Assembly: GCA_010093605.1 (NCBI GenBank)
Contig: MU004182.1
Coordinates: 591,032 to 655,031, forward strand
DNA from: Lophium mytilinum
Taxonomy: Eukaryota
DNA length: 64,000 nt
Direction of reading: 5' to 3'
Below, one piece after another: positions 36,692 through 64,000 of this stretch; position 1 is the first letter of the stretch, and each line of letters starts with the position of its first letter. Below the pieces are notes generated by a model, which made no database searches, was not told where the DNA came from, and worked only from the letters and a program-made list of their open reading frames with translations. The translations under genes were made by a program, and so were the position numbers.

Positions 36692-38696
36692 CTACCACGT
36701 GACCTTGGAAAGAATTTCTGCATCGCCGGCGTAAGCATCCTGCTGCCCCTCAGTTCGGATTATCTCTTCGTATTTGGGATCGCGCAGGTTGAAGTTAACG
36801 TCAAATGGCTTAAGATGGGCGACAATGCCCGGTATGTATTCCGTTTTAGGCGTGATTTCTTTCCCGTCCGGTCCCACCGGCGAGGTCATGGTGTAAGCAG
36901 CGAGAGTTTGTGCGATGGTCACAAACATTGCACTGTCAGCCAGAAGGCGTCCTGGGCAAATGCGTCGTCCCCAACCGAAAATGTTCTCGGTAGGGTCTGC
37001 CTCCCGTCGGTGGCCGGGGCTGTCGAGGAATCTCTCAGGCCGGAATGTTCGTGGCTCAGGGTATGTAGCCGGGTCGTTGTTATACAGCCTGCAAGACAAA
37101 CCTCAGCCACAAGAAAACAGGATAAGGGCAGCAAACCTGCAAGATACTAATAGTTGGGCAAGGAAGAGGTTTTGAACGGTATAGGAGAAGACAAAACACC
37201 TACCAGGCATTAGGCATCAAAGTGGCACCTTTGGGTATAAGATTGCCCCTGTAGATGATGTCTTCATCTGCCCTGTGAGGTAAGGCTATTGGGCCTGCCG
37301 TGTGCCAACGCATAGTTTCTAGAACCATCGCGTTTAGGTAGGGAAGTTCGTCACGATCAGAAAGAAGCGGAAGACGATCACGACCGATGACACGGTCGAT
37401 TTCCTCTTGACCTTTTCGTTGCACCTCAGGGAAGAGTAACATGGCAAGCAGAAACCCTTTCAGCGAAGCAACGGTCTGTTTAAGTACAATTAGTGGCGAG
37501 ATTTGCGTGAGGAGTGGGTGAGTTGCGTGTGCATACCGTGTCAGCACCAGCAAGATACATCCCCATTGCAGTCCACGCCACATCGCTGTGTAGCTCATTG
37601 TCGTCAAGAAGGTCTGACGCATAGGAAGGCACGTGATTGTTTTGTTTCCTCTGGTGTATCGTGAAGGCTAGTGGTTTCTCAATGACTTCGTCCACATGTG
37701 CGTGCACCTCCCGTGCGGCTTTCTTGAACCCGCCTCCGGGAAACCACTCCGGTATGTGGCGCACTATCGGACGGGTGGTTTAGTATTCGCAAAGCCGTCT
37801 TTACACAGGCCAAGATACTTACTAAATGGAAAGAAATCGACCAGCCACTTTCCGGGCAAGGTACTGTACACAAACCAATCGAGAGCAGATTCGGACAGAG
37901 AGACCAGTGGGTCAATTTCTTCGGGCAAGATGGAATAACCGTAGGTGACTTTTAGAATGAAGGCCCCGGCTTCTCTGATACAAGATCCATCGTTAGTCGT
38001 CATCACTTTAAAGAGGATTTGAGACAAGTTTGTGCCGGCACCTACCTTCGAAGATGTTCAGGATAGTGTTTAGGGTCCTTTAGTAGCCGCAATAAGAACC
38101 GTTGGGACTCTAGTTCTTGCAATGGGTGGAATTTTGCGACCGCAATCTTCGAGCCTAGCACCTTCGCCATAGCTTTACGGTACTGCCGGAAAAGCCTTCT
38201 GTCCCTTGTCAAAGCAAGTGACTTCTTCCAACCAGCACTGCGGGAGAAGATTCGTGTCAGCATGAAGTGATCCTTTACCGCTAATATCGCAATGAAGTGG
38301 GGGAAATACAATTCGTATGCAAACACTGATTCCGGCCGAGATGAAGTCTTGGCAGACTCTTTATCCAGGATATCAGTTGCATATTGCTTGTCATTGATGA
38401 GGACAATTGTAGTGCCGAGTATCGTCAAAGAGCTGATTGGGCCTATTCACCCCCTGGTCAGATTCTACTCAGCTTCTGATTGATGAAACGCTCAACGAAC
38501 CGTAAAGCTCCCTGTGCTTTATCCAGGTCAAAAAATCCACAGATCCTTCCGGTGGAAGATCATAGAGGTTTCCCACTATTGGGAGTCCTTTTGGACCTGG
38601 TGGTAGAGGGAGAGACCTGGGCTTGGTTTGTGATCTCCATAAAAGATAAAGGCCGATAATCGCGACAGCAAGGCTGGCCGTTGACGCAAAACCCAT
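36692..38696 (-). CDS. Cytochrome P450 (OrdA-like/CYP64-clan type), multi-exon
   Basis: TM anchor + LPPGPKGLPIVGNL, I-helix AGADT, ETMRWH (ExxR), FRPERF and heme motif FGWGRRICPG, spread across ORF pieces separated by GT-AG introns. Confidence 0.92.
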
Positions 38697-39442
38697 GATT
38701 GCTGAGTGTGAGAGTGAGAAGGAGTGCTCTCGCAGCCCGACAGCACTTATGGAAATGTGGTGTGATATGAACTGCTAACCCGGGGATAATCTGGGGTAGC
38801 GGGGCCTTCGATTTTGTCGCTTATCGCTGTGGCTTTAACACCAAATGCTCGCCATCCACCTATATCCTCCCTTCATACTATTGAACTCCTGGGCTTTCTA
38901 TGTTCCGAGGTGTCAGGTTGAGGTGGGAGTCTTCGGCAAATCCTAAAGCTATGACGCGGGGTGAATTGATATCACACATATGCGAAGTACCATCGTCTTT
39001 GGGTCGGGAGTCTATGAACCGGGAAATTATTTCCAATCAGAGTTCAAGTTTGTCACTAGATTTGACTTATTATTCAAGCACAGAGCTTTGTAGCTTTCGC
39101 CGGCTCGGCAGTCTCTTCTACCCGGACCCCCTGGTACGGATAATTGATGTTCAGTCATGAACGATCGCATTATGTTCAGATGCTGTGATATTTAGGGTTA
39201 CTAGAGGATGTGCAGATGCGGGGAAGAGTCGATCATTTTCCAACCAATTACCAAGTCACTAATCAATATCTATTCGGCACCACCAGCTCGGGAAGTCTTG
39301 CCTCCAGTCTTGCTAGCTTGACGCTACTACCTGTCCTTGCAGTAAGCTGCTATATTGCTGCTTCCTACGCTGGGCTGGACAATCACGACGTACAGCTTCA
39401 ATACACATATATAGGAGAGCTGCCAGATTTCAGAGTGGCACC

Positions 39443-40897
39443 ATGAGTTCGACACCACCCCGACGAGTATTGGTGATTGGCAGTGGCGGCGCTGGTGTGG
39501 CAGCAGCACTAGAAGCCAGCCGTCACGGTGCGGAAGTCATCCTGCTTGAATCAAAAGATCAACTTGGCGGCGCGACTTCCATGTCAGGCGGAATTATATA
39601 TGCAGGGGGAACTAAGACGCAGAAGGAGGCCGGAGTCCAGGACACCAAGGAGGAGCTCCTTGCATATCTTTCAGCTATTTGCCAATGGACGGTCAGCCCG
39701 AAGCTTCTGGAGACGACGGTAGAAGGTTGCGTTGATCTTATTCCGTGGCTGGAGGACTTGGGTGTGGTATTCAAACCCGGAGATCTATACGTCGCCGGCA
39801 TGGAGAAGAGTCCTAGAGGTCACAAGCCCAGTGGGGACACTGGTGGGAGAGGTCCAGCTGGAGGTGCCGTTCTCATCAACGCCATTGTGAATGCCTTTGA
39901 CGAACAAAAAGTGCAAGTTCACACAAACACCAGGATCACTGGCATTACGAGGAGTACTGGTGGTGGGATCAAAGTCACCTCAGAGAATGGGGGAAAATTT
40001 CACGGGGACTCAGTTGTCTTTGCATCGGGGGGCTTTGGCGCGAGCGTGAAGAAGCTGGCTCAGTATTATCCAGACGCCGTCAAGCATGAGGGCTGGACTC
40101 GGTACATCGGACCAGACTCGAACCAAGGCGATGCTATTGACCTGGCTCTTTCGGTAGGAGGAACGGTAGTGAACGAGAACACCGGAGGTCTTGACGCCAC
40201 ACCCAACTTTATCCAGGATATCGACCTGTACATGCCTCCGTGGCTGCTATATCTCAACCTTCATGGGCGGCGATTCATCAACGAGATGGCTCCTTATTCT
40301 TTCGGTGGGCCCACCCTTGTGGCACAGCCAGAATCCAGGTGTTGGGCAGTCTTTGACACTCGAGCTCTCACCTATGCCACCGACCACCCTCTCGACCCTG
40401 ATCCGTACGGTCTAGGATTCAAAATGCGCTCGAACTGGGAAGCGGACACGCTTCACAAAGAGATCGCGAGCGGACGCATCATCAAGGCCGATTCGCTTTC
40501 TGAATTGGCCCGCCTAACCGGAATGCCTGTCGAGAGTGTGGAATATACGATTTCGAAGTGGAACCAGGATGCTGTCCATGGAAAGGATCCTGAGTTTGGG
40601 AAGAAGTCCTCCGAAATGATGCCACTCGACCAAGCGCCCTATTACGCTGCTGATGTGCGCTCGCACGTGGTGGGAATCACTTACGCAGGGCTGAAGGTTG
40701 ACGAGGAGGCACGCCTGCTTGATCAGTTCGGTCGGCCCATTCCTCATTTCTATGCTGCTGGTGAAGCTGTTGGTGGTCTCGAAAAGTCAATCTACCCTGG
40801 AGGGGGCTATTCAATCGGTGTAGCACTCTTGTTTGGAAGAATTGCTGGCAAGAACGCAGCATCTGAGGGCAAGCAGCACCTTAACGGACGTCTATGA
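39443..40897 (+). CDS. FAD_binding_2 flavoprotein (3-ketosteroid dehydrogenase/flavocytochrome c-like), intronless
   Basis: IGSGGAG, GGATSMSGG, ASGGFG, GRRFINE, GLKVD, FYAAGE and YPGGGYSIGVALLFGRIAG. Lacks the SdhA covalent-FAD His motif. Ends -GRL. Confidence 0.85.
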   Translation: MSSTPPRRVLVIGSGGAGVAAALEASRHGAEVILLESKDQLGGATSMSGGIIYAGGTKTQKEAGVQDTKEELLAYLSAICQWTVSPKLLETTVEGCVDLIPWLEDLGVVFKPGDLYVAGMEKSPRGHKPSGDTGGRGPAGGAVLINAIVNAFDEQKVQVHTNTRITGITRSTGGGIKVTSENGGKFHGDSVVFASGGFGASVKKLAQYYPDAVKHEGWTRYIGPDSNQGDAIDLALSVGGTVVNENTGGLDATPNFIQDIDLYMPPWLLYLNLHGRRFINEMAPYSFGGPTLVAQPESRCWAVFDTRALTYATDHPLDPDPYGLGFKMRSNWEADTLHKEIASGRIIKADSLSELARLTGMPVESVEYTISKWNQDAVHGKDPEFGKKSSEMMPLDQAPYYAADVRSHVVGITYAGLKVDEEARLLDQFGRPIPHFYAAGEAVGGLEKSIYPGGGYSIGVALLFGRIAGKNAASEGKQHLNGRL

Positions 40898-41253: not shown

Positions 41254-42481
41254 TTAATACGTAGTTGTATTGACCGTAAAGCCACTAGTGAATACGAGTC
41301 AGTATGTTAGTGTCAAAGATGGACCGTGGGAAACTCACCCATCGACGACAAGATTTTGACCATTGACAAGGCTCATTTGGTTCGAGGACAACAACGCAAC
41401 TGCGTCACCGATCTCCTGTGGTTGCCCCGTTCGACCTTGGCGGGCCTCGAACATCTTCCATGCCTCGAAAACCTGGGGATCTGATTTGACTATTGGCTCG
41501 GCGATTTTTGTCAAGATGAAACCTGGCGATAGCGAATTGACTCTTATTCCATACTGTCGAGCTTCTAATGCTGCCTTCAAAGGTGGGGGTTGGAACGTTA
41601 GCACCTTTTCCCCCATAGCTGTAACAAGGCAAGTGTACAAGAGAATCAGGGATATGCACTTACAGCCTTAGTAAGACCAGCAACAGCATGCTTTGACGCT
41701 GTATATACGCCAGTCCCAGCCATAGCTTGAATCGAATTCACCGAAGCGCAGTTCACGATGGAACCCCTAACGGCCACGCGTCCAGCTTCCCTGGATCAGA
41801 ACCAGATGTATTAGCACAATGAAGAAAAGGATCGTCGATGAGGTTGTAGATGTTTTGCTCTTACCATTCGATAGGGTCTTGTTTCATCATCTGCAACAGC
41901 TGATGTTTTGTGCTAATGAACACCCCTGTCGTGTTGACGGCCATTACTTTTTCCCACTCTTCCACACTGATCTCTGAAATAGGTTTATGTGGGCCGCCCA
42001 CTCCTGCGAAGTTGCTGGGTGTCAGTCAGTCACGTGTCGCATTAAACTAGGTCAGTCCCGTACGCTGTGTAGTCAATACGTCCAAACTCTGCGACCGTTT
42101 TAGCAATGGCGCTCTCGAAATCCTTCTCGTCTGTGACATTGGCTTTGATGGGCAAACATTTGACCTGTCACAGCGTCCAGTTTCTCGTAAGCAAGCTATG
42201 CAAGAAACACAGAACATTCATCAAATTCTGCTAAAACTTGCCTGGTTTCCCTGAGATTCGACTTCCGTCTTCGCGCTTTCCATGGTTTCATCATCCTGGA
42301 TGTCAACGATCACAACACCTCTTGCCCCTGATTTCGCAAAGGACACAGCAATTGCGAGCCCCAGGCCACGTCCACCACCTGTTACGAAGGCAACTCCCGG
42401 CAAAAGCGAGGATGATTGGTGTGTTGACGCCTTTGAAAAAAGTCAGAACTTGAGATACTGCAAAAGGGAGCTACTTACCAT
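41254..42481 (-). CDS. Classical short-chain dehydrogenase/reductase, multi-exon
   Basis: ATG micro-exon at 42481-42479 followed by GTAAGT. Motifs TGGGRGLG, NFAG, YTASKHA (YxxxK), GIRVNSLSPG and LVVDGGF. Last exon 41284-41254. Confidence 0.85.
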
Positions 42482-43040: not shown

Positions 43041-44693
43041 ATGAGTTGGGATAGCGAATATGATATCATCTGTGTTGGGTCCGGGGTTGGGGGTCTATCG
43101 GCAGCCTTGACAGGCGCACAGCAGGGTGCTAGTGTCCTTGTACTGGATAAATTTCACCTTATTGGCGGAGTGTCGGCGTTGTCTTCGGGTCAACTTTGGC
43201 CAGGTCCAACCCATCTTTCCAAGGCAGAAGGAATTGAAGACAATGACAGCGACGCACAAGCTTACATCAACCATCTCTCACAAGGCTTTTCTGATCCAGA
43301 CTTACGGGAGTCCTATCTCGCCCAATGTCGGGGGGCGATCAAGTACTTCACCGACACCATTGGCTTGGAGCTGCAAGTGATCAAAGATCTGCCCGATTAC
43401 TACTACCCAGCGGTGAAGGGCTCTGCTCCTCAGGGGCGTTTTCTCGAAATCAAACCTTTTCCAGCAACAAAACTTCCTGGGGAATGGGCCTCCAAGATCT
43501 TAACATCTCCATATGGCGACGGTTTCAGCTACGTAACCGGGAATGAATTTGTATCAATGCAGTTGAAAGGCGGAGAGCATGTCGGCACAGTCCTCCAGCG
43601 CCATGTCAAAGCAGACGAACGGACTTCCGGGGCAGGCCTAGCAGCCGCACAGGTATATGCCGCTTTACAGCGCGGAGTCAAGATTCAACCATCGACCGAG
43701 GTGGTTGACCTTGTTGTCGAAGGGGGGAGGATTACAGGAGTGATAGCACGCGATGCCTCCTCCTCCTCCACAAAACGCATTCGGGCTCGACTCGGTGTTC
43801 TTCTTGCGACTGGAGGTTATGATCTCCAGCCCAACATGGTACGCGGCTTTGACAACCTGATCAACGCCGGCAATATGACGATACCCACTATCACAGGAGA
43901 TCATCTTACTTTGGCAGCCAAAGTAGGCGCTGTTCCATATCCAGCTCATCCCTCAGCCTTGACTGCGATCTTTGTCGGATACCAAATTCCTGGTGAGATT
44001 ATTTACGGTAAACCAACCTGGCGGTTACTTCTCCCTGGAGCGCCACACTCATTCATTGTCAACTCGCGAGGTAATCGCTTCGCCAATGATTCCTTTTACC
44101 CCGATGTCTCGGCCAAAGCCGGACGCTACGATGGACAAGAACAGGGTTTGGTGAACTGGCCGGCATGGCTTGTCTTCGACCATAACTTTGTTGAAAAATA
44201 CAATCTGCTACCAGCCTACCCAGGCCAGCCATTACCTCAGGGAATCGCTGTGAGCTCAGACACGCTCCGCGGTCTGGCCGAAGTGGCAGAGATCGATGCC
44301 GACGGGCTTTTGAGCACAGCAGAACGATTCAACGGCTTCTGCAAAACCGGGGTAGATGAAGACTTCGGACGTGGATCTCTGCCATGGGGCACGATCATGA
44401 CTGGCGATTACAGCCTCCCCCATCCTAGCTTCGCCGAGCTAGCGAAGGCGCCATTCTATGCAGTCAAGCTTCATCGTGTTACCGTGGGTGTCCCAACCGC
44501 GGGTTTGCCCACCAACGGCGACGGGAGTGTCATCAGTGCGGCTGGCCATGTTGTCCCCGGCCTTTACGCCACCGGTAATTCTGCAGCGTACCGCGACTGG
44601 GGAGCTGGATATAATAGCGGGGTTGCGAATATGCGTGGAATGCTTTACGGTTATAAAGCATCCTTACATATGGTTAAAGAAGCAGGTCTGTAG
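43041..44693 (+). CDS. 3-ketosteroid-delta1-dehydrogenase (KstD)-like FAD oxidoreductase, intronless
   Basis: MSWDSEYDIICVGSGVGG, GGVSALSSGQLWPG, PDYY, LATGGY, GNRFAND, DEDFGRG, GLYATGN and GYNSG. First ATG at 43041. Confidence 0.85.
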   Translation: MSWDSEYDIICVGSGVGGLSAALTGAQQGASVLVLDKFHLIGGVSALSSGQLWPGPTHLSKAEGIEDNDSDAQAYINHLSQGFSDPDLRESYLAQCRGAIKYFTDTIGLELQVIKDLPDYYYPAVKGSAPQGRFLEIKPFPATKLPGEWASKILTSPYGDGFSYVTGNEFVSMQLKGGEHVGTVLQRHVKADERTSGAGLAAAQVYAALQRGVKIQPSTEVVDLVVEGGRITGVIARDASSSSTKRIRARLGVLLATGGYDLQPNMVRGFDNLINAGNMTIPTITGDHLTLAAKVGAVPYPAHPSALTAIFVGYQIPGEIIYGKPTWRLLLPGAPHSFIVNSRGNRFANDSFYPDVSAKAGRYDGQEQGLVNWPAWLVFDHNFVEKYNLLPAYPGQPLPQGIAVSSDTLRGLAEVAEIDADGLLSTAERFNGFCKTGVDEDFGRGSLPWGTIMTGDYSLPHPSFAELAKAPFYAVKLHRVTVGVPTAGLPTNGDGSVISAAGHVVPGLYATGNSAAYRDWGAGYNSGVANMRGMLYGYKASLHMVKEAGL

Positions 44694-44805
44694 CTAGAAC
44701 TTGCGAGCGGTGGTAACGGCGGACATTTTTTTCTAGTTTTATGTTGAGTAAGCCTCTTAGCTAAGTTATCTTTAATGTGGAGGGGCGAGCACATAGCCCT
44801 CAAAC

Positions 44806-44835
44806 CCCCCCCCCCCCCCCCCCCCNNNNNNNNNN
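44806..44835. other. Poly-C run followed by 10-N assembly gap
   Basis: N at 44826-44835. Confidence 0.95.
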
Positions 44836-45188
44836 CCAGAGAAACAATATGTAAAATTTATGTCTATGCCAGGCTCTACGTGCGTGAGTCGTTATGACTG
44901 GTTGAATTTATCCGCGCTAGGCGGGAGAAGAAAAATGGCAACGATAACTTCTCCCTGGGAATTGCAAGTTGAGCCTACAGACAATTTCATGCAAGCTTGG
45001 AACTCGATAACGATATCCGGGTAGTTCGATGCATTGATAAACGGAAGGAAGCTGTTCTGCCGAGGCCTGGGAGACCAGAGTAGTATAAAGCCGCCCATGG
45101 CGCCCTCGAGAGGGGTACGAATACCCTTCTACTCAGGTTCAGTACGCACGTGCAGTGTAAACAGAAAGATTTTCCTCATTAACTAATC

Positions 45189-46524
45189 ATGCCAACTCCT
45201 GTACCATTCAAAATTGCAGTACCTGAAGAGAAGCTTCGTATCTTGCATCAGAAACTTTCCCTGACTGAATTGCCGGATGAAGTACCACTCAAGAAGCCTC
45301 GAAGTCGCGGCGCGCCTCTCCGAGATGTCAAAAATCTTGTTGATTATTGGCTGCATTCCTTCGACTGGCGAGCGCAAGAGAGCAAACTCAACCAGTTTCC
45401 TCAATTCACCACCGACATAGACGTGGACAGATTCGGCACATATAACGTTCATTTCATCCATCAAAGAAGCGCCGTCCCGAATGCGATCCCATTGATCTTC
45501 CTTCATGGCTGGCCTGGCAGTTTTATCGAAGTCACCAAAATTCTCCCCGAGTTGATCCAAGGGGGCCCAAATTTCCCAGCCTTCCACGTCGTGGCCCCGA
45601 GCCTCATTGACTATGGCTTCTCCCAGGGAAATACAAAAGTGAGTAGTATTGACGTCTAGCATGTTGTTGGACTGCAACCTAAAATCACTCAAGGAAGGAT
45701 TCAACCTCGATCAACACGCAGAAGCATACCACAAGCTGATGCTAAGTCTTGGATATTCTGAATATGGTAAGTGACACTCTAGCCTATTATTCATACTTGC
45801 GTTATGCTAATAAGAGTACGCAACAGTGGCTCAGGGTGGCGACATTGGTAATTTCCTGACCAGGTTTCTAGCTCTCAAGTATCCCGAATCCTGCAAAGCC
45901 CATCATACGAACATGCCGACGCCGAATCCACCGGATCCATCCAAGCACGCAGACCTCATCGCTAAAATTGAGGCTGAAGGCGGCCTGAGCGAGGAAGACC
46001 GAAATCGGTTGGCATCCACCCAAGAACACCAGGCCGACGGAATGGGGTACTCGACGGAGCACATGACGCGGCCACAAACCATCGGATACAGTCTGACTGA
46101 CAGCCCGGTGGGCTTGCTTTCATGGATTTACGAGAAGTTAGTGGACTGGGCAGCAGATTATCCATGGACCGCTGATGAAGTCTTGACCTGGGTCTCGATT
46201 TATCGTTTCTCACGCGCAGGTTCTGCTGCTCCTCAACGCATCTACTATGACATGATGCATCGGGAACCCATGTCACTCGTTGACGTGACGGCACAGTATA
46301 TCGATGTGCCTTTGGGTACTTCGCACTTCAAAAAGGACCTTTTCCGCCTTCCATCACGCTGGGATGCTACTCTTGGTCCGATCGCTTTTCAGGCGGAGCA
46401 TGACAAGGGTGGCCATTTTGCTGCATGGGAGTGCCCAAAAGAGTTAGTCAAGGACCTACGTGACATGTTTGGCAAAGAGAGTCCAATTCATGGCTGCGTG
46501 ACTGGGCAGAGTGGCTTTACATAA
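45189..46524 (+). CDS. Microsomal-type epoxide hydrolase (EHN + alpha/beta hydrolase), 3 exons
   Basis: FDWRAQE, HGWPGSF oxyanion motif, AQGGDIG nucleophile Asp, TRPQTIGY and GGHFAAWE catalytic His. Introns 45639-45693 and 45767-45825. Confidence 0.92.
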
Positions 46525-53434: not shown

Positions 53435-53621
53435 CAGTGTGCACATAGAGCAGTATCGTTGAATCAACTATTCTTTCCGCCACACTTTTCTATTGTATTG
53501 TCAAGCTTGGAGCTATGAGGTCGTCTAGTAGCCAATGGTTTATCTTTCCAAGGTAGCCCAGTTCGAAGTGGGGAGTGAAAAAAGTTACATCGAGAGAGTC
53601 TTAGCTCAGGATGCCAGATTA

Positions 53622-53960: not shown

Positions 53961-54332
53961 GACCTGGATGATCTTGGTCGAGGGGCGTTGCCGCTAGGAA
54001 ATTGCATGTGATTTGCTACATCTCGTCAGTTCTGTTAAATTAAGCTACACCGTTCTCTTTACTTGGACGCGAGCCAAAAAATTCGGATAAGCCCGGAATA
54101 CCGAGGATTTATCCGGCAGCCTCGTGGCTCCTCGCCAACCTCTCACAGTGACGGATAAAGTTCTATGTAACAAGGAGGTCCCGGGCGAACAAAAACCACT
54201 GCGATATTCTATAGAGTACAAAACCTGTCAGTCGCACAAACCGAAGAAACCATAGCTCCAAGTCCATACCTCCAGAACGCAACACTATCGTGGAACAAAA
54301 ATCTTTCAATTTCACAACCCAATCAGCCCACA

Positions 54333-55163
54333 ATGCTGCATAGCTTGAAATTCGAGGAATACAAGGATGCCTTTCGCTATCTCACTCTCCGACGAGAAAA
54401 TGGTATCCTCGAGGTTAGAATGCATTACAATGACGGTCCAGCCAAATGGTCGGGATATGATGTGTCTCTGCACTCAGAACTTCCGGAGCTGTTTCAATGC
54501 GTCACCAAGGACCCTGAAAACAAAATTATGATCTTTACCGGCACCGGACACGAGTTCCTCGCGGAATGGGATCGAACCGATGAGACTGAGGTCCTTGTCT
54601 CACCACAACAATGGCATCGACTTTACAAGGATGGGAAAGAGCTCATTCACTGGTTCTTGGACATTGAAATCCCCATCATTGCCGCGGTGAATGGAAAGTG
54701 TTTCATTCATCCTGAGCTACCAACTCTCTGTGACGTTGTGATTGCCTCAGAGACTTCGGTTTTTGCGGACAAAGCACACTTGACGGACACCCGGGCCGTT
54801 CCTGGAGATGGATCACACGTTTGGTGGCCGATGCTGCTTGGACCCAATCGCGGCCGCTCATTTCTCATTCTCGGAGAAGAGATCCCAGCAGCAGAAGCAA
54901 AGACACTCGGGTTTGTGGCTGAAGTTGTCCCCCAGGATGCTGTGTTGGATCGTGCTTGGGAAATTGCTCGCACACTCATCACCCACGACCCTCTGGTGCT
55001 GAAGTACACCCGGATCTCCCTGACCCAGCATATGAAACGGCGGTTCCTCGACGACCTAGGCTACGGCTTGGCACTTGAAGGATTGGGCATTTTGTCTCTG
55101 GCACAGAACGCATCGAAGAGCAAAGGATGGAGCTTTAGCTTACCAAGTGGAACATCGGGATAA
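54333..55163 (+). CDS. 6-oxocamphor hydrolase-like beta-diketone hydrolase (crotonase superfamily), intronless
   Basis: Colinear with Rhodococcus 6-oxocamphor hydrolase as recalled: F.EY...L.R..G.L, W, H.EL, D.ENK..I.TGTG, IE.P.IAAVNG, HPE, D..H, VPGDG.HV.WP..LG.NRGR.FL, RAWE.AR and DL..GLA.E. Confidence 0.85.
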   Translation: MLHSLKFEEYKDAFRYLTLRRENGILEVRMHYNDGPAKWSGYDVSLHSELPELFQCVTKDPENKIMIFTGTGHEFLAEWDRTDETEVLVSPQQWHRLYKDGKELIHWFLDIEIPIIAAVNGKCFIHPELPTLCDVVIASETSVFADKAHLTDTRAVPGDGSHVWWPMLLGPNRGRSFLILGEEIPAAEAKTLGFVAEVVPQDAVLDRAWEIARTLITHDPLVLKYTRISLTQHMKRRFLDDLGYGLALEGLGILSLAQNASKSKGWSFSLPSGTSG

Positions 55164-55649
55164 TGAATACCACTTTGACAAAGCCATTTACATAAGACGG
55201 AAAGATCTGCTGGTTCTCTTGATATCTGTTCCTTTGCTGTTTCATCTTGGTCGAATGACTGTTCCTGGGCACTTGTGTGGGTATTCAGGGTTGTGGGACA
55301 CTATCGACTGACTTTTTTCTTCGCAGCTGCCACCAGCAGCAAATAAAACTGTACATTATGATGGAACATCCTATTTCTCTATAAGCTATGCATATTTCCG
55401 ACACCGTAAACCTACTTGACGAAGGCCCCATGTCCTTTCCAGACTATCCTCGTATCTCATCATTCATCAAGCAAGCGGAGGTAGATCCCCCAGCCTGGTA
55501 ATATAGAGAATTCTCATATTTCATAGGTTTCACGGACGGGAAATTGGCGTTGTCCAATGTTTTCAGTAAACTGCGTTGCCAGTAGGGTATCAGTGAACTG
55601 ATTGCCTTGTTCTTGTCTTCTTCGCTGTACATACTACTCGGCGGCACAT

Positions 55650-56793
55650 CTAAGAGCTTGCGTATAGTTTTTGAAGCACGTCCTTCACCGTCAACGGCTT
55701 AATCTCCGGAAACTCTGCGTTCAGATCCAGACTTCCTTGTTCTGGGTGCAAATTGAACGCTCCTCCATCAAACCATAGACCGAACACCGCGAAAACGAAC
55801 TGGAGTTGCTCCTTGGGGAAATATGGGTAGACTGGGACATGTGCAGGAAGCTCCGTAATCTGTCCCTTCTGAAGTGACTCAATTGAGTCGTACTGGACGT
55901 TGAACTTGACCCCTAGATTATGGCAACAGCTATTAATAAAGGCATCACCCAGGATCTGGAATGGATTCTTCAAGGGCTCTTTCTGGCTTACCTTTGGTCT
56001 TCTCCGCCAGAGCAACGAAATCATTCCAAGTGATTTTGTCACCAATCGTGTAGCTATCAGGCTTCCACTTGGCAATGTCGAGGAGCTTGGAGACATAGCG
56101 AGCGACATCTGTCGTGTGGGTGAATGCGACGGGAGTATTTCCCTCACCCGGGATACCAGCGGTGTTGTTGTTGAGATCGAGCACTATAGTAGTGGGCTGA
56201 AGAAACGACTCTATCTTCGGTATTCCGAAGTAGTCCAAGAAGAAGCCACAGTTGACTCGGGTGTGTTCAAGGGTGGACTTCTTGAGCTTGGACAGCACCT
56301 CAAGTTTCAAGCCGGCTGGTGGAAACAGCTGTCCCTGTCTAACAGCAAAGGCTTCATGAGCACAGGCGGCGTCACTTCACCATAGAGGAAAAAGGTGGCA
56401 AAAGGGCACTCACTCTTCCGTATACGCTATTCCCCAGGAGCTTGGTATGAATCTCTTTGTGTACGAAGAGGCCTCAGCGGCCGAGACCAAGTTGATCTCA
56501 GCTTCGTTGGAGGTGAGCACAGCAAGAGTCGAGATAACAGTCTCGATGCCGTGGGATTTGAGTACATCTTCCAAAGATGCTGTATCCGTATAGTCGACTT
56601 GTACTACAGGAGCGCCTTGTACACTTTCCGCCGACGACTGTGCATTTTATCAGTGCGCCGAACCATGTCTTATCAGGATAGCATTCTATACCTTTCTGCT
56701 CAAGATCACAACCTTTTTCCCATCTGCAACGAGAGCCTGGACAATGGCTCGTCCGATTCCACCAGTGCCACCAGCCACCGCAATGGTCGCCAT
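55650..56793 (-). CDS. NmrA-like/isoflavone-reductase family NAD(P)-binding protein, multi-exon
   Basis: MATIAVAGGTGGIGRAIV start, RFIPSSWG, LEHTRVNCGFFLDY, FTHTTDVARYV and FPEIKPLTVKD. Confidence 0.85.
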
Positions 56794-58597
56794 TTCCGCT
56801 TTGTTTTCTAACTGATCGAGGATGAAATATCTGTATCTCTTTCTCTCACGCTTTCGTTAGTGACTTTGAGTAGGTACTTTCCGAGAGAGGGCGTTTAAAG
56901 CTGCAGTAAATATGGACTTGTTGGCAAGTGAGCAAAATGGCTAGCCTATGGTGTGATTTGCAATACACTCTGTGCCGTTCGAATCTTTTCCTACGCTCGC
57001 CGGCGAATGCTGGGTGCGTCAAGCACCCGCGCGGCCATTTCAGGGTTTCGGGTCGGAAGACACTGTAAAAACCCGTTTGGTGGACCGTATGGCCAGCAAT
57101 GGCGGATGATCATCGTATCACGTGAGTACCACTCCAGTCGCTGCAAGCGCACATGCTAGAGTTGCTGACCCAGATTCTTTTCCCATATGCAGTACCACAG
57201 AAGTGTCACACATAGAAGCTAGTTGAAATCGCGTAACTGGCCAGCCTGATCAGAGTTCTTGGTGTTATAATCTCTTCATCACTCCGACGCATCAACATGC
57301 GTAATATCTTCTTCTTGACGAAAGTCAGTTCCATCGTCCGTGCCGTACTTGGCGTTGAAACGGAGACTTTCAAGCGTTTCAAGTTTTCGTGGATGTATTC
57401 GTCCAATGTACTGACCTCTTCGCCAGAGTGGTAAGTGAGTGTGAGCGATGCTCGTAACCACGACGAAGGACCTGAAAGAGGCTCTCGATGCCGCACTTGA
57501 TGCGTTCAAAACCTAAAGTCAGATTCCACTCGGAAGGAAGGCGTAAATGCACTGGAACAGTTCTCATGCTTGGGTATTTTGTATTTGTGGTTTGCCTACG
57601 ACTCAGCCGGGACTGGCCTGGAAACCTCATTTAACTCCTTTCATAAAGTTCCCGGAAACAAGATATACCTCAAGATTCGCTGATAGTGAAATCAATCGTG
57701 AGTTTGAAGCTACCTAAAAGCAAGTCGAAATGCACCAACGAGAGATCTCTACACTAACGCCAATACGATCGGTGCCGCTTTCACAGATCTCCCTATAAGC
57801 TCTCCTGGGGATCATAGTCACGCCGTCACCTTTCACTCACGCTCTATGCTGTCCATACAACCGTGGATAGATATGATTGAAGCCATGAAGCGTGTTAATG
57901 CCTCCTTGATGGCCCTTGGTGCGAGCGTCTGGTGCAAGGACATAAAACGAGCGAATGGGAAGGCCAGTCAATTGAATGCAGGATACTTTTTCATTAATCG
58001 CGCGGAAACGCTGAAGATTCGTGCTCCCTTTGGCGAGTTCAAAACAATCAAAGCTCATGGCAGCGAATAACCCAATTTTTGGGGAAACAGAGCCTAGACG
58101 AGATTGCGAAGATCGATAACGAGCTTAGGTTTTTCCAAGCTGGACGAGAGAAAGTCAAGAGTGACCTTGCGCGTACTCCTAGCTGGCGCTGTGAGTTCTT
58201 GATTGGGAACTGAGTAGCTGTACCAATTTTTTCCGAACAATCCGTTCATGTTCGTCCATCCGGCTCGATAGGCGCAATGCCGTGCCGAGAAATCTGACCC
58301 TTGTCCACCACTGGCATCGTCTTCGCAACAGCTCATCCGGCTTCGGCACATGTTCCGGCAACTTGCGTTACATCTTGCTGACCAGTGGATGACAAGGTGG
58401 CACCCCGATCTGGTCTCTCCTAGCGTCCCATATGCACTCCGGTCTTACAGTGAAAGGTACTCCGGAGGAAGTTGCATGCAACACTGATAAAACCTCTCAG
58501 GGTGACATTACTACCAGCCTAGAGTTCTGCCACCTGCCTGCTTTCTGGTCTTGTAAGATTGATTCTAGTCGGTATCCATCTTCCTTCTATCAAGAAA

Positions 58598-60850
58598 ATG
58601 GGCTCCATTCCTCCCAGTGAGCTGCGAGTGCCGTCTAATCCGGGGGAGCGGGCCATCAATGACTATCGCCCGATCAAGGCCATATGCATTGGTGCTGGTA
58701 TGAGTGGTATAACTGCAGGCTGCATGCTTCCACAGAAAATCCCTAATTTAGAGCTCGTCATATACGAGAAGAACGACGATGTCGGCGGGGGGTGGTACGA
58801 GAACCAGTGAGTCGAAAGCCAAAAATGGTCATGGCTATTCTTGACTGACCAGACACTCAGTTATCCTGGAGTACAGCCTGGTAAGAGCGACATCGTCCCA
58901 CACGCGTTCAGTTCGCGTATCGAGCATTGACTGATGCGAGCAAGATTTGACGCCGCATACGTACCAATACACATTTGCCAGCAATCCTCGCTGGAGCCGG
59001 TTCTACCCTCCTGGACGCGAATTCGAGCATTATCTGAAGGTGGTAGCGAAGAGATTTGGGGTTTATGATCGGACCAAGTTCCGCCACAAGTTTTTGACCG
59101 CGAGATGGATCGAGGATGATGGGCAATGGGAGGTGGAGGTTCTTCGTCTCGACGACAACGTCGTGAGTCAAATCAATCTCCAGTCTCAACGCTTGTCCAA
59201 AGCAGCAGACTGATGTTTCTTTCTCCATCTAGGTGGTCAGAGACCGGGCAGAGGTTCTCATCAGGTGTATGGGTCTGGTGAATGACTGGAGATTTCCCGA
59301 CATCCCAGGGCGACAAGATTACCAGGGCAAAATGATACACACGGCTAGATGGGATGACTCGTATGATGTCACTGGAAAGCGGGTGGCAGTCATCGGCTAT
59401 GGTGCCACTGGGGTTCAGATCATGCCGGCAATCCAGCCCTTAGTCAAGTCTGTCGACCACTACGTACGCGGTCCATTCTGGATAGCGCCGGCCGGCGGAA
59501 CGGCGATGGAGGAAATTCTCGAACGTGGAGAGCGGTTGAACTGTAAGTGTTTCCGCCCCCCTTATGGTCGTCGCGCAGCCTTCGATTGACCAAATGTGAA
59601 AAGTCGATCATCCGGCCGAGGAAATCGAGAAATTCTCCGAAAAGCCACTCACGTACTTGACCTATCGCAAAAAGATCGAACATCTGTGTAACGGGTATCA
59701 AGCCGGGTTGATGAGGGACACTGAGGCTCATGCGCAGCTCCACGCCATAATTGAGGCCAACATGAAAGCGACGTTGGCGCCAAAAGAGGGCTATTTTGAA
59801 CTCCTAAAACCTGAATACGAGGTCGGTTGTCGCCGGTTGGTCATGGGTCAGCGTTGGATGGAAGCGCTCGTTCAACCCAACGCCACTCTCTTCAAATGCG
59901 ATATTGCTCGCTTCACCAAGGAGGGAATCGAGCACCCGGATGGAACCATTCGAGAATATGATGCCATCATATGTGCGACCGGCTTTGACACGTAAGCAAA
60001 ACCACCAAAGACTAGCAAGCACGCTTTTCATTACGTTCATGAGCACGGCTGACAAGGATTTGCAAAGTAAACTCGACAACGCGAATACTCCGATTCTTGG
60101 ACAAGGTGGCATCACACTCGCCGAACAATGGGATCCCGAACCCGTCGCGTATCTCTCTGTTGCGGTGCCAAAGTTCCCCAACATGTTCCAGCTATTCGGC
60201 CCCAATTCGGCCCCAGTGGCTGGCTCAATCTGCCATACAATGGAGGGCGCTTGTGGCTTTGTTATTAAATCAATTTTGAAGCTCCAGCAAGAATATCTCA
60301 AGTCCATTGTCGTCAGGTTAGTTGGCCGTAGTTGTTTTCTGCATTCCTTTCTCTTTCCGCCGCCTTCTCTACTACTACCTTGTGGAACTGTTTCTAACGA
60401 GAGTGCGATTGTAGCCCAAGAGCGGCGCAAGACTGGATGAACCAGGTCGACTACTGGACCAGTAAAACTGTCATTTCAGGGACGGTGAGTAACGCAATGC
60501 GAAGCGTATTTCATTATCTGTCTAGTATGTGGAATGATGCCTGCTTCTAACACAAAGGATTTTGCCAGTGTCGTACATGGTTCAAGCGGAACATCGAGAA
60601 AGGTCGATCCATTATCAACTGGCCAGGCTCGGCCATGCATGCCTACCGTGCATGGAGCAACCCTCGATGGGAAGATTTTGAATACGAGTCGTGGCTGCCA
60701 GAAGGCCAATCACTGCGTTGGATGGGGAACGGCATGACCTACTCTGAACAGCATGGAACTGATACCACCGATTACATGTCATTCACCGATGAAGCGACTG
60801 TTCTTACGGAAGAAGACTTCAAGGCTGTTGAGGACAAACTCACCAAGTGA
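58598..60850 (+). CDS. Flavin-binding monooxygenase/BVMO (StcW-like), multi-exon
   Basis: IGAGMSG, GGGWYEN-YPG, fingerprint YQGKMIHTARWD, IGYGATG, GCRRL, ATGFD, FPNMF..GPN and PRWEDFEY. Many short introns. Confidence 0.88.
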
Positions 60851-61350
60851 GTGAGTGCAGAGAGAAGGACTGGTTTTCGGAACTAACTGGCATTCTGCTA
60901 CGAGTGATCGGTCGCGATAACTCACGGTATCGATGGAGGAGATCACATCTGAGAACATAGATAGAGGGGTTTATCGGATGATTCATACTGCTAGAATTTC
61001 TTCTTTGGGGGTTGCCCCTTGTTGGGTACTATGTGTCATTTTAACAGTTCACTCTTCTATTAGTTTGATTTCAAATGAGCATGACTGGTCAAGTCGGCAC
61101 GACATAGCGTTGTGCCAAGATTCTCTCTCATAGCAAATAAGAGTGACACTGTGATATGAAAGAAGTCGTCTATATCGGCGGTTTCCTTACATATGACCCT
61201 AGACTTATTCTTCGAGAATTAAGACCGGCGTCCATACATATACGCTATGTCTCTGAATTCGAACCTCGGTCTTCAATTGGGAAAGACACAGGGATTCTTC
61301 CATAGCTTTGAAGTAGAGGAGTGTCATTCATGTTGCGCAATATGTCATTC

Positions 61351-61995
61351 TTACTCTTCCTGCAGCAACTTCATGAGTGGGCCAGAGTCCTAGACATTGT
61401 TGAGATTGCTTAGCTACCCGGCCAATTTTGCAAAGGAGAAGATAAGGAAGAATGGAGTGCTGAACATACCCCCCAGACTTGGAAATGTTTCATCTTGAGG
61501 TTGGACGATTTGATATCCTCAAATATGATTCGACTGAGAAAATTCCCTTCCAGGTGTTTGCCGTTGACAAGGCCCATTTTGGCGAGGCCAATGTTCAAAA
61601 GATCAGAAGCATCCTCAGTACAGGTATACACCTTGAGAATCTTATGCTGTCTCTCTGAAACAACTTTCCAGGCCGCGATGCGCGAGACCTTGATTTCTGT
61701 GAGCCATACAAATTTAGCACTGCTGCATAAACATCAACGTTCTTTGGAAGAAGAGACTGAGACCCAAAAGGTAATGTGAAAAATAAATCTGCACACCTTC
61801 CGATCCCACATATGTTCCTCCTGATAGTATAAAGGTTGCCGTGGGTGTGAAGAAGTCAGCTGCCAGCTTGGCCCCAGCATCGGGGGTATTGTTATCCATG
61901 ACCACGAAGAAATCATCGAGGAACTTCTTGACAGTCGAGGGCACGGTGGTCGACGAGGGCCACTCCGTGTCTGAGGTGGCGAAATCGGTCGTCAT
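61351..61995 (-). CDS. Small NTF2/SnoaL-like protein (3 exons)
   Basis: VKKFLDDFFVVMD...FTPTATF...GSE / EIKVSR.AAW...H.ILKVY / DSGPLMKLLQEE*, joined by GT-AG introns. Fold call is by pattern only. Confidence 0.6.
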
Positions 61996-62545
61996 ACTGA
62001 CAGCAGTCACTATATAAGCAGACCAGTAGGTGCGAGACGTAGACACAAGTATACGAGAGAAAGTAACGCTATTGCAGCGAATATGAATATATCTTTGTAG
62101 CGTACCGCACGTCTAGGGTTCTACGCGGTCTATTTATCGCTAAAATGACATCAGTAGCTCCCTGGCGACGAGCTCCCAAAAAATCAGTGGTCCTCATTGA
62201 TGTTTCAGCTTCCCGCCCACCTTCCTTGGGGGGTACCGGAACGGGACTCTAATATGTCATATGAGAAAGAGGGAAGAGCAGACTGCGACAATCCGGATAA
62301 ACTTGCGTCCCGTAGATCCCAACGAGGCTGGAAAGCCTGAAGTTGCTGATCTCGGCATTCCTTCTCTGAGTTCGCGCTGTCACAGGATGGATGCCCCGGA
62401 TACGTCTCTTCGTTTGTTCATTGGGCTAGGCTCCTTCCAATCCCCTCAATCTAGATTATAATATGAAATGATCGCCCCAGGCCCAGCCCCGTCCCAACCG
62501 AAATTTTGATCCGTCTCTTTTCGCACTCCAAACAGTAACTGGACC

Positions 62546-64000
62546 ATGGCGACCCAATACAGCGATGAGTATGATGTCGTCGTTGCCGGATCTGGAATTG
62601 GTGGTCTTTCAGCCGCCATCACCGCCGCCGAGCGAGGTGCGCGTGTTCTCGTAGTAGAAAAGCTCGATAAGCTGGGAGGGGTCACCGCATTGTCGTCTGG
62701 AGTATTATGGCCAGGACCCAATTCGCTTTCAGAGAGCTTGGGCTTTGAAGACTCAGTTGAAGAAGCCCAAGCATATATGAACACGATTACGCGCGGCTTG
62801 GCCAAGGAGGACCTGAAGCTGGGATATCTCGCTAGGAGTCGTGAAGCCATTCAATACTTTACCGACAAGATTGGGGTTGAATTACAGGTCATTCGAGGCG
62901 TGCCAGACTATTATCACCCGTCTGTCCAAGGTTCCAAGGTCGAGGGGCGCTTTCTGGAAAGCAAGCCTTTTTCTGGCAAGCGCTTGGGGATGTGGACTGA
63001 CAAGGTGCTCACCTCACCATATGGACCCGCCTTCAGCTATGTCACAGGCACAGAATGGGCTGCGTCGCAGACCGGTAAGGCGAACATCGTCGAGAGCCTT
63101 CAACAGCACGTCCAGGAAGATGAACGCTGTGGGGGCGCTGGATTGTCGGCCGCCCTCGTCTACGCCGCGCTCCAGCACAACGTGGAGTTTCGGACTTCGA
63201 CCGCGCTCGCGGATTTGATTGTGGAAGATGGAAGAGTTGTAGGAGTGCTTATTGAACCAGTGGCGTCCTCGTCAGGGGGGGATGGGGTTACGAATGACAC
63301 TACGAAAGGAACTGGGAATCATGAAAAAGCACTTCGGCTGCAAGTACGGCAAGGAGTAGTTATGGCAATAGGGGGTTACGATTGGCGAAAGGATCTAGTA
63401 CAGGCATTTGACGGACTGAAGGAGTGTTCCACCATGGTGCCACCTACAATCACCGGAGACCACATCGTCATGGCATCAAAGGTCGGTGCTATTCCGATCC
63501 CGGCACGACTTCCAGGCCAAAGTCCTATATTCGTCGGGTATCGCGTTCCAGGAGAGGTCATCTTTGGGTATCCGTCATCACGTTTATTACTGGCAGGCGC
63601 TCCCCACAGCATTATCGTGAATCGAAAGGGGCTCAGATTTGCGAACGACGGCTTTTATCCCCACGTTGTCGAGCAGGTTACCCGATATGGCAGCCAGATG
63701 ACACACATGCCCAATTGGCCCGCCTGGCTGGTGTTCGACCAGAGCATGCTCGACAAGTATGGTTTGGCACCGACCTATCCTGGACAGCCACTTCCCGAAG
63801 GCCTTGCCATACAGGCCGATAGCATCAAAGAGCTTGCTGAGCGCGCTGGCATTGACTCAACCGGTCTGAGCGAAACTGTGGACCGATACAACGGCTACTG
63901 TGAAACAGCCACGGACCCTGAATTTGGCCGCGGCACGTATCCCTGGTCTGCAATTATGGTGGGCGACTATCGATTGAGGAACCCCAACATGGCAGAGCTT
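62546..64000 (+). CDS. KstD-like FAD oxidoreductase, paralogue of 43041-44693; runs off the window end
   Basis: Open frame from ATG 62546 with no stop before 64000, hence absent from the ORF track. Motifs EYDVVVAGSGIGG, GGVTALSSGVLWPG, PDYY, LTSPYG..FSYVTG, PTITGDH, GAPHSIIVN, NWPAWLVFD and DPEFGRG are all shared with the 43041 protein. Confidence 0.9.
   Translation, partial: MATQYSDEYDVVVAGSGIGGLSAAITAAERGARVLVVEKLDKLGGVTALSSGVLWPGPNSLSESLGFEDSVEEAQAYMNTITRGLAKEDLKLGYLARSREAIQYFTDKIGVELQVIRGVPDYYHPSVQGSKVEGRFLESKPFSGKRLGMWTDKVLTSPYGPAFSYVTGTEWAASQTGKANIVESLQQHVQEDERCGGAGLSAALVYAALQHNVEFRTSTALADLIVEDGRVVGVLIEPVASSSGGDGVTNDTTKGTGNHEKALRLQVRQGVVMAIGGYDWRKDLVQAFDGLKECSTMVPPTITGDHIVMASKVGAIPIPARLPGQSPIFVGYRVPGEVIFGYPSSRLLLAGAPHSIIVNRKGLRFANDGFYPHVVEQVTRYGSQMTHMPNWPAWLVFDQSMLDKYGLAPTYPGQPLPEGLAIQADSIKELAERAGIDSTGLSETVDRYNGYCETATDPEFGRGTYPWSAIMVGDYRLRNPNMAEL

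Follow-up and report, generated by a model that had tools for sequence, protein, structure and literature searches.

Fungal degradation of conifer resin terpenoids is described as poorly defined past the initial P450 step (PMC13348985, in the passages dealing with resin), and a survey of RefSeq genomes, in the portion that treats fungi, reports no fungal pathway for degradation of the steroid nucleus (PMC4810484). The conifer-associated ascomycete Grosmannia clavigera carries a terpene-responsive cluster of ~30 genes, and two of its Baeyer–Villiger monooxygenases (BVMOs), CMQ_7007 and CMQ_6956, are implicated in limonene detoxification in the parts of the reports that concern them (PMC3680317, PMC8120277). 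Among bacteria, the anaerobic 2,3-seco steroid pathway is outlined as running through the delta1-dehydrogenase AcmB, reduction to the 1-ene, the Mo-dependent 1-TDH and the ring A hydrolase SRAH; the same partial account gives the 1,3-dione hydrolase gene of the cyclohexanol-type pathway as unknown (PMC11780191). Here we analyse a 64,000-nucleotide stretch of Lophium mytilinum DNA (contig MU004182.1, positions 591,032 to 655,031; hereafter the window), in which positions 36692–64000 hold 13 neighbouring genes in 27.3 kb, every one of them encoding an enzyme. On balance we lean towards reading this locus as a functional, non-biosynthetic cluster with which an ascomycete of resin and wood catabolises or detoxifies an alicyclic or polycyclic ketone by oxidising it and then opening its rings; a conifer terpenoid (mono-, sesqui- or diterpenoid) is the likeliest substrate, a steroid-like compound another possibility.

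Gene models were built by hand from canonical splice sites and from splice joints in RNA contigs, and families were assigned by Pfam searches of 146 stop-to-stop open reading frames (ORFs) of at least 68 aa drawn from 36–64 kb; the upstream stretch was scanned in the same way with 119 ORFs of at least 85 aa, shorter exons falling outside both scans. The 13 genes encode a P450, four FAD_binding_2 flavoproteins (FAD1 to FAD4), two short-chain dehydrogenases/reductases (SDR1 and SDR2), an EHN-type epoxide hydrolase, two type I BVMOs, a crotonase-type beta-diketone hydrolase (BDH), an NmrA-like protein and an NTF2-fold protein. FAD1, FAD2, BVMO1, SDR2, BDH and FAD4 (up to the window end) are intronless, FAD3 has one intron, and the remaining genes have two to seven each. 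The features of the region are as follows.

36692–38696, minus strand: P450, 522 aa, 7 exons and 6 introns, N-terminal membrane anchor; Pfam p450 on two exons (3e-15 and 3.7e-22)
39443–40897, plus strand: FAD1, soluble FAD_binding_2 flavoprotein, 484 aa; Pfam FAD_binding_2 1.1e-45
41335–42481, minus strand: SDR1, classical SDR, 269 aa, 5 introns; Pfam adh_short and adh_short_C2 on exons
43041–44693, plus strand: FAD2, divergent KstD-family flavoprotein, 550 aa; Pfam FAD_binding_2 2.1e-49, PDB 7p18 7.8e-49
44826–44835: scaffold gap of 10 N, between FAD2 and the epoxide hydrolase
45189–46524, plus strand: EHN-type epoxide hydrolase, 406 aa, 2 introns; Pfam EHN 1.7e-38, GT..AG joint 45765/45826 in RNA contigs
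47299–49284, plus strand: BVMO1, long type I BVMO, 661 aa; PDB 5mq6 1.7e-154 over residues 15–635
49955–51809, plus strand: FAD3, KstD-type flavoprotein, 596 aa; PDB 7p18 4.2e-84, aligned end to end
52511–53434, plus strand: SDR2, MFE-2/17beta-HSD4-like SDR, 307 aa; Pfam adh_short 2.6e-27
54333–55163, plus strand: BDH, CoA-independent crotonase fold, 276 aa; Pfam ECH_1 2.7e-22
55650–56793, minus strand: NmrA-like NAD(P)-binding reductase, 311 aa, 3 introns; Pfam NmrA 6.4e-06 on one exon, slightly under the curated cut-off
57708–58067, plus strand: probable aldehyde dehydrogenase (ALDH) relic, C-terminal fragment of 65 residues; Pfam Aldedh 3.7e-09, profile positions 374–439 of 461
58598–60850, plus strand: BVMO2, type I BVMO, 581 aa, 7 introns, one 20-nt micro-exon; exon 4 matches CHMO 6era at 1.9e-17
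61351–61995, minus strand: NTF2-fold protein, 154 aa, 2 introns; CT..AC joint 61696/61797, aligned end to end with ~150-aa homologues
62546 to beyond 64000, plus strand: FAD4, paralogous to FAD2 and truncated where the window stops; Pfam FAD_binding_2 9.9e-40, full length 571 aa as judged from the homologue P0503

A preliminary description of the window had proposed 13 consecutive enzyme genes here, and the Pfam assignments and gene models bear this out; its family calls were likewise right, the BDH having an intact active site and BVMO1 matching 5mq6. It had also seen no polyketide synthase (PKS), non-ribosomal peptide synthetase (NRPS) or terpene cyclase, and we found no Pfam family of PKS, NRPS or terpene synthase/cyclase, and no prenyltransferase core, in the 146 + 119 ORFs across the window, shorter exons being unscanned. 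Two of its labels need qualifying. "Four KstD-like" flavoproteins overstates their likeness: the term is apt for FAD3, while FAD2 and FAD4 are divergent and FAD1 is closer to fumarate reductase, urocanate reductase and Kst4D. The NTF2-like call agrees with the predicted fold of a homologue, the gene itself having no Pfam match. The description makes no mention of the ALDH relic, the 10-N gap or the third BVMO-like gene upstream (28826–30839).

The BDH would open the ring on the hydrolytic route. Its best PDB matches were ABDH (2j5g, 3.6e-62) and 6-oxocamphor hydrolase (OCH; 1o8u, 3.9e-53), with enoyl-CoA hydratases at 1e-16 or weaker. Residues H47, D146, H149, D159 and E249 align with H43, D141, H144, D153 and E243 of ABDH, which the relevant part of the structural report gives as active-site residues (PMC3584854); the ABDH chain offset of 10 was deduced from the alignment. 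All five residues are invariant in the 22 sequences of our alignment. The protein is a member of the OCH/ABDH-type family with an intact active site, and retro-Claisen cleavage is its predicted reaction. Neither a eukaryotic member of this family nor, specifically, a fungal crotonase-type beta-diketone hydrolase was described in the literature library that we searched, where "6-oxocamphor hydrolase" and "fungi" never co-occur. A metagenome scan for fungal BDH relatives returned bacterial-type loci only, with identities of at most 56% (partial matches up to 63%). A 1363-aa "fused" BDH of Fusarium mundagurra was considered as a clue to neighbouring functions and set aside; its extra part has neither a Pfam family nor a match in the window.

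Among the flavoproteins, FAD3 has the most complete resemblance to KstD-type desaturases. PDB 7p18, to which it aligns over its whole length, is, we assume, AcmB; matches to 8am3, which we take to be cyclohexanone dehydrogenase, were weaker than those to steroid KstDs (1.4e-33 for FAD3 and 7.3e-22 for FAD2). FAD3 keeps the equivalents of KstD1 Tyr119, Tyr318, Tyr487 and Gly491 and is the sole flavoprotein of the cluster with all four; Tyr119 and Gly491 (KstD1 numbering) are presumably further catalytic residues. Tyr318 is the base and Tyr487 binds the 3-keto group, according to the section on the KstD1 active site (PMC8220720). FAD2 and FAD4, 52% identical to each other, keep the PDYY motif and have an insertion at the Tyr318 position, with a tyrosine one residue off or within the insertion. 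The KstD model of NCBIfam has a cut-off of 789 bits, which FAD3 (367), FAD2 (287) and FAD4 (230) all missed; the best NCBIfam model for FAD3 was the unnamed PRK06134 (538.6 bits against a cut-off of 747). FAD1 matched 1qo8 (1.2e-39), 6t85 (9.8e-37) and 4at0 (9.7e-35), its best scores being with flavocytochrome c fumarate reductase, urocanate reductase and 3-ketosteroid delta4-(5alpha)-dehydrogenase (Kst4D). Exon 1 of FAD3 (49955–50059) encodes an Arg-rich N-terminal extension of ~35 residues that is absent from the bacterial homologues and present in the fungal FAD3 proteins, and that may be a targeting presequence gained once the bacterial-type gene had been acquired. The presence of four FAD_binding_2 genes among 13 neighbours, with linkage conserved in two other genomes, is not a matter of chance.

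BVMO1 matches 5mq6 over nearly its full length; this structure is, we assume, PockeMO, the polycyclic ketone monooxygenase of Thermothelomyces thermophila. Matches of BVMO1 to PAMO, STMO and CHMO lay between 1e-38 and 1e-47, and its sole NCBIfam match was the model of the pentalenolactone BVMO PtlE (459.6 bits, cut-off 1100). In the BVMO translations we read GHIFHSARWD, and in BVMO2 YQGKMIHTARWD, the latter presumably the BVMO fingerprint; splice joints of BVMO2 at 59991/60068 and 60483/60568 are present in RNA contigs. The P450 translation, from a model built without RNA contigs, carries FGWGRRICPG, AGADTT and ETMR, the epoxide hydrolase HGWP, GGDIG and GGHF, and SDR1 TGGGRGLG and YTASK, which we take to be motifs of the respective families. 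SDR1, also free of RNA contigs, apparently has one GC-AG intron (42165–42241 on the minus strand, donor GCAAGT) beside four GT-AG introns. SDR2 resembles the dehydrogenase domain of MFE-2 (PDB 2et6, 4.5e-63; 1zbq, 2.9e-38), and in the NmrA-like gene RNA contigs support CT..AC joints at 56338/56414 and 56637/56692. For the NTF2-fold protein, the fold is assigned through the homologue P0384, whose AF2 model has a pLDDT of 94.8 and whose Foldseek matches are all NTF2-like, among them limonene epoxide hydrolase (LEH), SdnG, Trt14, LinA and a putative scytalone dehydratase (TM 0.56–0.70). Another homologue, P0381 of Lepidopterella palustris (904 aa), carries an annotated fusion with an F-box-like protein, possibly a merged model; the contigs of P0381 and of the FAD2 homologue P0263 have the same length, 96,842 bp, which hints that the genes are linked in a third genome too.

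Physical linkage that is kept beyond close relatives is a mark of a fungal metabolic gene cluster, and the preliminary description had named homologues scattered without conserved linkage as evidence against its reading. Synteny, read from locus tags and accessions for three of the 13 genes in each relative, is instead kept in two fungi:

Mytilinidion resinicola, 1,991,248-bp contig: FAD3, KAF2810600.1, 90% identity
Mytilinidion resinicola, same contig: BDH, KAF2810603.1, 96% identity
Mytilinidion resinicola, same contig: FAD4, KAF2810609.1, 89% identity
Capronia epimyces, 4,994,026-bp contig: BDH, A1O3_00978, 84% identity
Capronia epimyces, same contig: FAD3, A1O3_00981, 82% identity
Capronia epimyces, same contig: FAD2, A1O3_00984, 79% identity

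The three orthologues fall within 10 consecutive accessions in M. resinicola, a member of the Dothideomycetes, and within 7 locus tags in C. epimyces, a member of the Eurotiomycetes. The spacing from FAD2 to FAD3 in C. epimyces equals that in the window, and its tag order (FAD2 at 00984, FAD3 at 00981) supports our gene order across the 10-N gap. Compared directly, the orthologues of M. resinicola and C. epimyces are 81% (FAD3) and 86% (BDH) identical, whereas the homologues in C. immunda and C. psammophila, also of the Chaetothyriales, show 57–60% identity, with the C. psammophila copies on three contigs. Because identity is this high in two classes while the other Chaetothyriales homologues are distant and dispersed, the comparison indicates that the cluster, in whole or in large part, has passed between fungal classes. 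Judged by the three proteins compared, M. resinicola is the named fungus closest to the window.

The phylogenies, from quick tree searches, agree with such a movement. In the FAD2-family tree (43 rows), the 13 labelled fungal rows formed one clade (SH-aLRT 99) beside bacterial rows; FAD2 of the window and C. epimyces 00984 (SH-aLRT 100) were nested among Mytilinidiales rows, and FAD4 of the window paired with M. resinicola. In the BDH-family tree (62 rows), which took every third of hits P0010–P0120 and omitted L001 and L007 (stops in the translated match), the 13 fungal rows were one clade with support 96 among bacterial lineages. The direction suggested by the two trees is mixed: that of FAD2 would point from Mytilinidiales to Capronia, and that of BDH has Chaetothyriales rows in basal position. 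Sarea resinae, Lophium mytilinum and Claussenomyces have homologues as well. A 231,680-bp JGI contig apparently carries both BDH and FAD3 homologues. In C. epimyces, a FAD4-like gene (A1O3_06673, P0374, 71%) lies on a contig other than that of A1O3_00978–00984; a FAD3-like gene, A1O3_06691 (P0143, 60%), is 18 tags away from it, and the two may belong to a second related cluster.

Several of the intronless cluster genes have bacterial relatives at 50–60% identity. The BDH is 50–56% identical to thousands of ~253-aa proteins, mostly metagenomic, and 43–53% identical to proteins of Sphingomonadales, Porticoccaceae and other genome loci; FAD2 shares 60% identity with a Sphingobium fontiphilum protein, and FAD3 ~50% with Paraburkholderia and Novosphingobium proteins. 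Within 12 kb, one rhizosphere metagenome contig (L119, 1–12000) encodes a BVMO, an FAD_binding_2 protein, a SnoaL_4 protein, a lactonase of SMP-30 type, a BDH and an epoxide hydrolase with EHN domain, and so has five families in common with the cluster. In locus L006 the BDH stands between two long BVMOs that are 35–36% identical to BVMO1 (41% for the BVMO of L119), and in L135 an orthologue of FAD2 (60% identity) stands between P450, SDR, GMC and ALDH genes. Near L001:15698–16960 there are Rieske and P450 genes. Pfam scans of eight BDH loci, incomplete for L001 and L007, gave the following frequencies of gene families.

SDR: 4 of 8 loci
Luciferase-like monooxygenase: 4 of 8 loci
SnoaL-like: 3 of 8 loci
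P450: 2 of 8 loci
BVMO: 2 of 8 loci
FAD_binding_2: 2 of 8 loci
EHN: 1 of 8 loci

Wholesale transfer of a bacterial operon was rejected, because no locus shares the gene order of the cluster in tblastn searches of 134 loci with 12 protein pieces from the window or in the Pfam scan of the eight BDH loci.

Transcripts close in sequence to the cluster were present in decaying wood. In the wood-decay metatranscriptome X4, 219 contig pieces with 85–100% identity covered 29 of 30 bins of 44900–64000; 14 pieces were at least 99% identical, 46 at 95–99%, 79 at 90–95% and 80 below 90%. Joints of GT..AG or CT..AC type were found in the epoxide hydrolase, NmrA, BVMO2 and NTF2 genes. Run X3 gave 12 low-depth pieces, eight of which were at least 99% identical, and had two joints in common with X4, while run X5 gave no matching contig. 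Positions 49359–49995 were uncovered in X4 and depth was very low at 57003–58913 and 62099–62735, where low cover does not mean silence. These data show that relatives in decaying wood express the cluster genes and splice their transcripts. The promoter regions, in addition, share the motif CGGATAAA, whose sites lie at 44907, 46779, 46954, 49666, 54108, 54152 and 62294 (span 44907–62301). All seven copies in the 64-kb window are in cluster promoter regions, against 2.25 expected over the whole window, and five of the 10 promoter regions carry the motif; this level of sharing, or a higher one, came up in 3 of 100 shuffles. Two sites upstream of the BDH form an inverted pair ~37 bp apart, and CGGATAA variants occur at 39137, 49651 and 54084.

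The same observations bear on a reading in which the region is a loose xenobiotic island, that is, independent oxidoreductases and hydrolases that duplication and transfer have brought together in an accessory region, and not one pathway. Positions 1–9600 of the window are an AT-rich block of 9.6 kb (26–33% GC) that borders gene-bearing sequence of 47–62% GC, and an island would readily account for this border, for a pseudogene relic and the paralogues FAD2 and FAD4 within the cluster, and for a third BVMO gene lying 6 kb upstream amid unrelated genes. It would also suit the changing partners of BDH among bacterial loci, the FAD4-like gene found elsewhere in C. epimyces and the dispersed homologues of C. 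psammophila. Yet the order and linkage of at least BDH, FAD3 and FAD2 or FAD4 are kept across two classes at 79–96% identity, the families fit successive steps of known ring-opening chemistry, the family set recurs on the single bacterial contig L119, and a promoter motif is common to cluster genes; we therefore consider a loose island unlikely.

Beyond the cluster, the genes at 10–28 kb have a GC content of 52–62%, against ~47–53% in the cluster itself. The upstream genes include the following.

9683–11014: SBF-like transporter
17438–19053: Zn2Cys6 factor
26885–28216, minus strand: 2-hydroxyacid dehydrogenase
28826–30839: third BVMO/FMO-like gene, ~6 kb upstream of the cluster, beside the 2-hydroxyacid dehydrogenase

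Other upstream genes encode an F-box protein and a DUF6924 protein, interspersed with ORFs to which Pfam assigned no family. DUF3435, the domain of Starship captains, was absent from the 119 upstream ORFs, a weak negative given that short exons were unscanned. Within the cluster, the ALDH fragment at 57708–58067 sits in a 1.8-kb stretch that holds short ORFs only. Since tblastn with three bacterial ALDHs gave no match in this stretch, the assignment is a Pfam one; the fragment is probably what remains of a cluster gene that has been lost. In both syntenic relatives, the stretch from BDH to FAD4 counts more tags than there are genes in the window.

It is distinctly unlikely that the 13 genes are instead the tailoring half of a biosynthetic cluster (its product being, for instance, a meroterpenoid or else a triterpenoid of fusidane type or a diterpenoid of sordarin type) whose core synthase lies beyond 64 kb: P450, SDR, BVMO, KstD-type and NTF2-fold enzymes do all occur in fungal terpenoid pathways, the Foldseek matches of the NTF2 homologue include Trt14 and SdnG, biosynthetic clusters too typically transfer horizontally as units, and the right border is outside the window, which ends in FAD4, but the 54 kb of gene-bearing window contain no core enzyme, no acyl-, methyl- or prenyltransferase was found there, a C–C-cleaving hydrolase and three or four redundant desaturases are present, and BDH, FAD2/FAD4 and FAD3 are 50–60% identical to proteins in bacterial loci of catabolic type (with TonB receptors, Rieske oxygenases, ALDH and regulators of the AraC, GntR and TetR families).

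For the catabolic cluster that we favour, the families are those assigned above, and every step of the flow proposed here is inferred. The P450 would hydroxylate or epoxidise the hydrocarbon skeleton and the epoxide hydrolase would open the epoxides, after which SDR1, SDR2 or the NmrA-like protein could make the ketone. Along a first route (Route A), FAD3, and perhaps FAD2 and FAD4, would desaturate the ring alpha,beta to the ketone; water would be added to the enone, for which the NTF2-fold protein is a candidate; an SDR would oxidise the beta-hydroxyketone to the cyclic 1,3-diketone; and BDH would cleave the C–C bond of the diketone by retro-Claisen hydrolysis. On a second route (Route B), the PockeMO-like BVMO1 together with BVMO2 would lactonise ring ketones. 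Apart from both routes, FAD1 may act on a further C=C bond, either reducing or introducing it. The NTF2-fold protein is put forward as enone hydratase by pure inference, on account of the chemistry of scytalone dehydratase and LEH and of the SnoaL-like genes beside bacterial BDHs. As to origin, the cluster would have been assembled in part from bacterial genes (BDH, FAD2/FAD4 and FAD3) and moved as a unit between fungal classes.

Conifer terpenoids are favoured as substrates because of the PockeMO- and PtlE-like BVMO, the wood-decay transcripts and the ecology of the relatives. M. resinicola is recorded from resinous Larix bark in the entry on its habitat (PMC11514609), and Mytilinidion, Lophium and Sarea appear in a list of resinicolous fungi (PMC13348985). 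PockeMO, in the part of its characterisation that concerns steroids, oxidises their A and D rings (PMC7570940). A steroid substrate is nevertheless not implied, as the models of the 4-oxocyclohexanecarboxylate desaturases ChcC1 and ChcC2 score close to the KstD models.

A number of observations weigh against a complete, functional ring-opening pathway. Concerning the chemistry, the cluster genes include no recognised enone hydratase; FAD2 and FAD4 have no aligned tyrosine in the Tyr318 and Tyr487 columns and fit the ChcC1 and ChcC2 models nearly as well as KstD models; none of the seven single-exon proteins scanned reached an NCBIfam cut-off; and the best structural relatives of SDR2 act on CoA esters. 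Concerning the integrity of the locus, the ALDH relic shows that the cluster is partly decaying, and both relatives carry one tag more between FAD3 and BDH than does our model of the window (three tags or accessions from FAD3 to BDH, versus two genes); a further gene was sought in both gaps at 51810–54332, with no convincing model. Inside the 27 kb there is no pathway-specific transcription factor or transporter, the Zn2Cys6 gene at 17438–19053 and the SBF-like transporter gene at 9683–11014 being the nearest and separated from the cluster by unrelated genes. The window ends within FAD4, so that a core enzyme further downstream is possible. The partners of BDH differ from one bacterial locus to another, metatranscriptome contigs cannot rank expression or show co-regulation, and CGGATAAA was found post hoc and is suggestive only, a candidate shared cis-element. 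Taken together, the catabolic interpretation is plausible but unproven and has partial support.

The cluster is nonetheless a concrete candidate, with 13 genes, intact active sites and probable horizontal sharing between a Mytilinidion-like fungus and C. epimyces; the transfer between classes and the bacterial ancestry of key genes raise its interest. If the catabolic reading is true, a ring-opening strategy would be added to fungal catabolism, transfer of a catabolic module would be documented both from bacterium to fungus and from fungus to fungus, and a PockeMO-like BVMO, KstD-type desaturases and a desymmetrising diketone hydrolase would be available as biocatalysts. A bolder claim, which we consider doubtful, is that this would be the first eukaryotic pathway to open carbocycles by retro-Claisen cleavage, a counterpart of the bacterial cyclohexanol and 2,3-seco routes with a BDH and KstD-type desaturases of bacterial origin, moving as a unit between classes and supplying the missing genetic basis for breakdown of resin diterpenoids, terpenoid ketones or the sterol nucleus by resinicolous fungi.

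The preliminary description knew of no such fungal cluster, a statement that the terpene cluster of G. clavigera, as portrayed in the parts of two reports, contradicts (PMC3680317, PMC8120277). With a terpene-responsive cluster already known there, the kind of cluster is not new. According to those portions of its description, G. clavigera resembles the present case in being a conifer-associated ascomycete whose cluster responds to terpenes and is thought to metabolise them, and in having BVMOs as its characterised detoxifying enzymes. It belongs to a different class, the Sordariomycetes, and the comparison was made by description. We know of no KstD-type flavoprotein or beta-diketone hydrolase in the G. 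clavigera cluster, and the literature searched described no fungal cluster that combines a beta-diketone hydrolase, KstD-type desaturases and BVMOs.

Among single enzymes, PockeMO is matched by BVMO1 over its full length, including the long N-terminal extension. In Rhodococcus, camphor is degraded by a P450, a dehydrogenase and then OCH, and this order matches the P450, SDR and BDH content of the cluster. The OCH of Rhodococcus and Alr4455 of Anabaena belong, like BDH, to the CoA-independent crotonase-fold family, and the five active-site residues given in the pertinent section are conserved (PMC3584854); both are bacterial enzymes. The uncharacterised bacterial loci L119, L006 and L135 share families with the cluster, with identities of 28%–60%, and no single one matches the fungal order.

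At the level of whole pathways, the preliminary description had proposed desaturation, formation of a 1,3-dione and retro-Claisen hydrolysis, with a parallel BVMO route, and had cited the cyclohexanol pathway of Alicycliphilus denitrificans. The sequence of reactions fits the gene content, whereas no enone hydratase like the molybdenum enzyme of that pathway is found in the cluster. In the A. denitrificans pathway, too, a KstD-family desaturase acts on a ketone, there a monocyclic one, and the product is then hydrated, oxidised to the 1,3-dione and hydrolysed; the pathway differs in that its hydratase is a molybdenum enzyme, and the matches of our flavoproteins to 8am3 are weaker than those to steroid KstDs. 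In the 2,3-seco steroid pathway, as far as its outline goes, a 3-ketone, once desaturated, yields a cyclic 1,3-dione that is then hydrolysed, as proposed here for Route A (PMC11780191), and the end-to-end alignment of FAD3 with 7p18 and the similarity of FAD1 to Kst4D extend the likeness. The two differ in the ring-opening enzyme, SRAH being given in that outline as an amidohydrolase_2 protein and not a crotonase (PMC11780191). The cluster contains no molybdenum hydratase or dehydrogenase, and neither Amidohydro_2 nor a molybdopterin Pfam family was found in the ORF sets of the window. Its host, moreover, is an aerobic fungus, and the cluster brings BVMOs and a P450. The cluster may work like the 2,3-seco pathway while not being a member of it.

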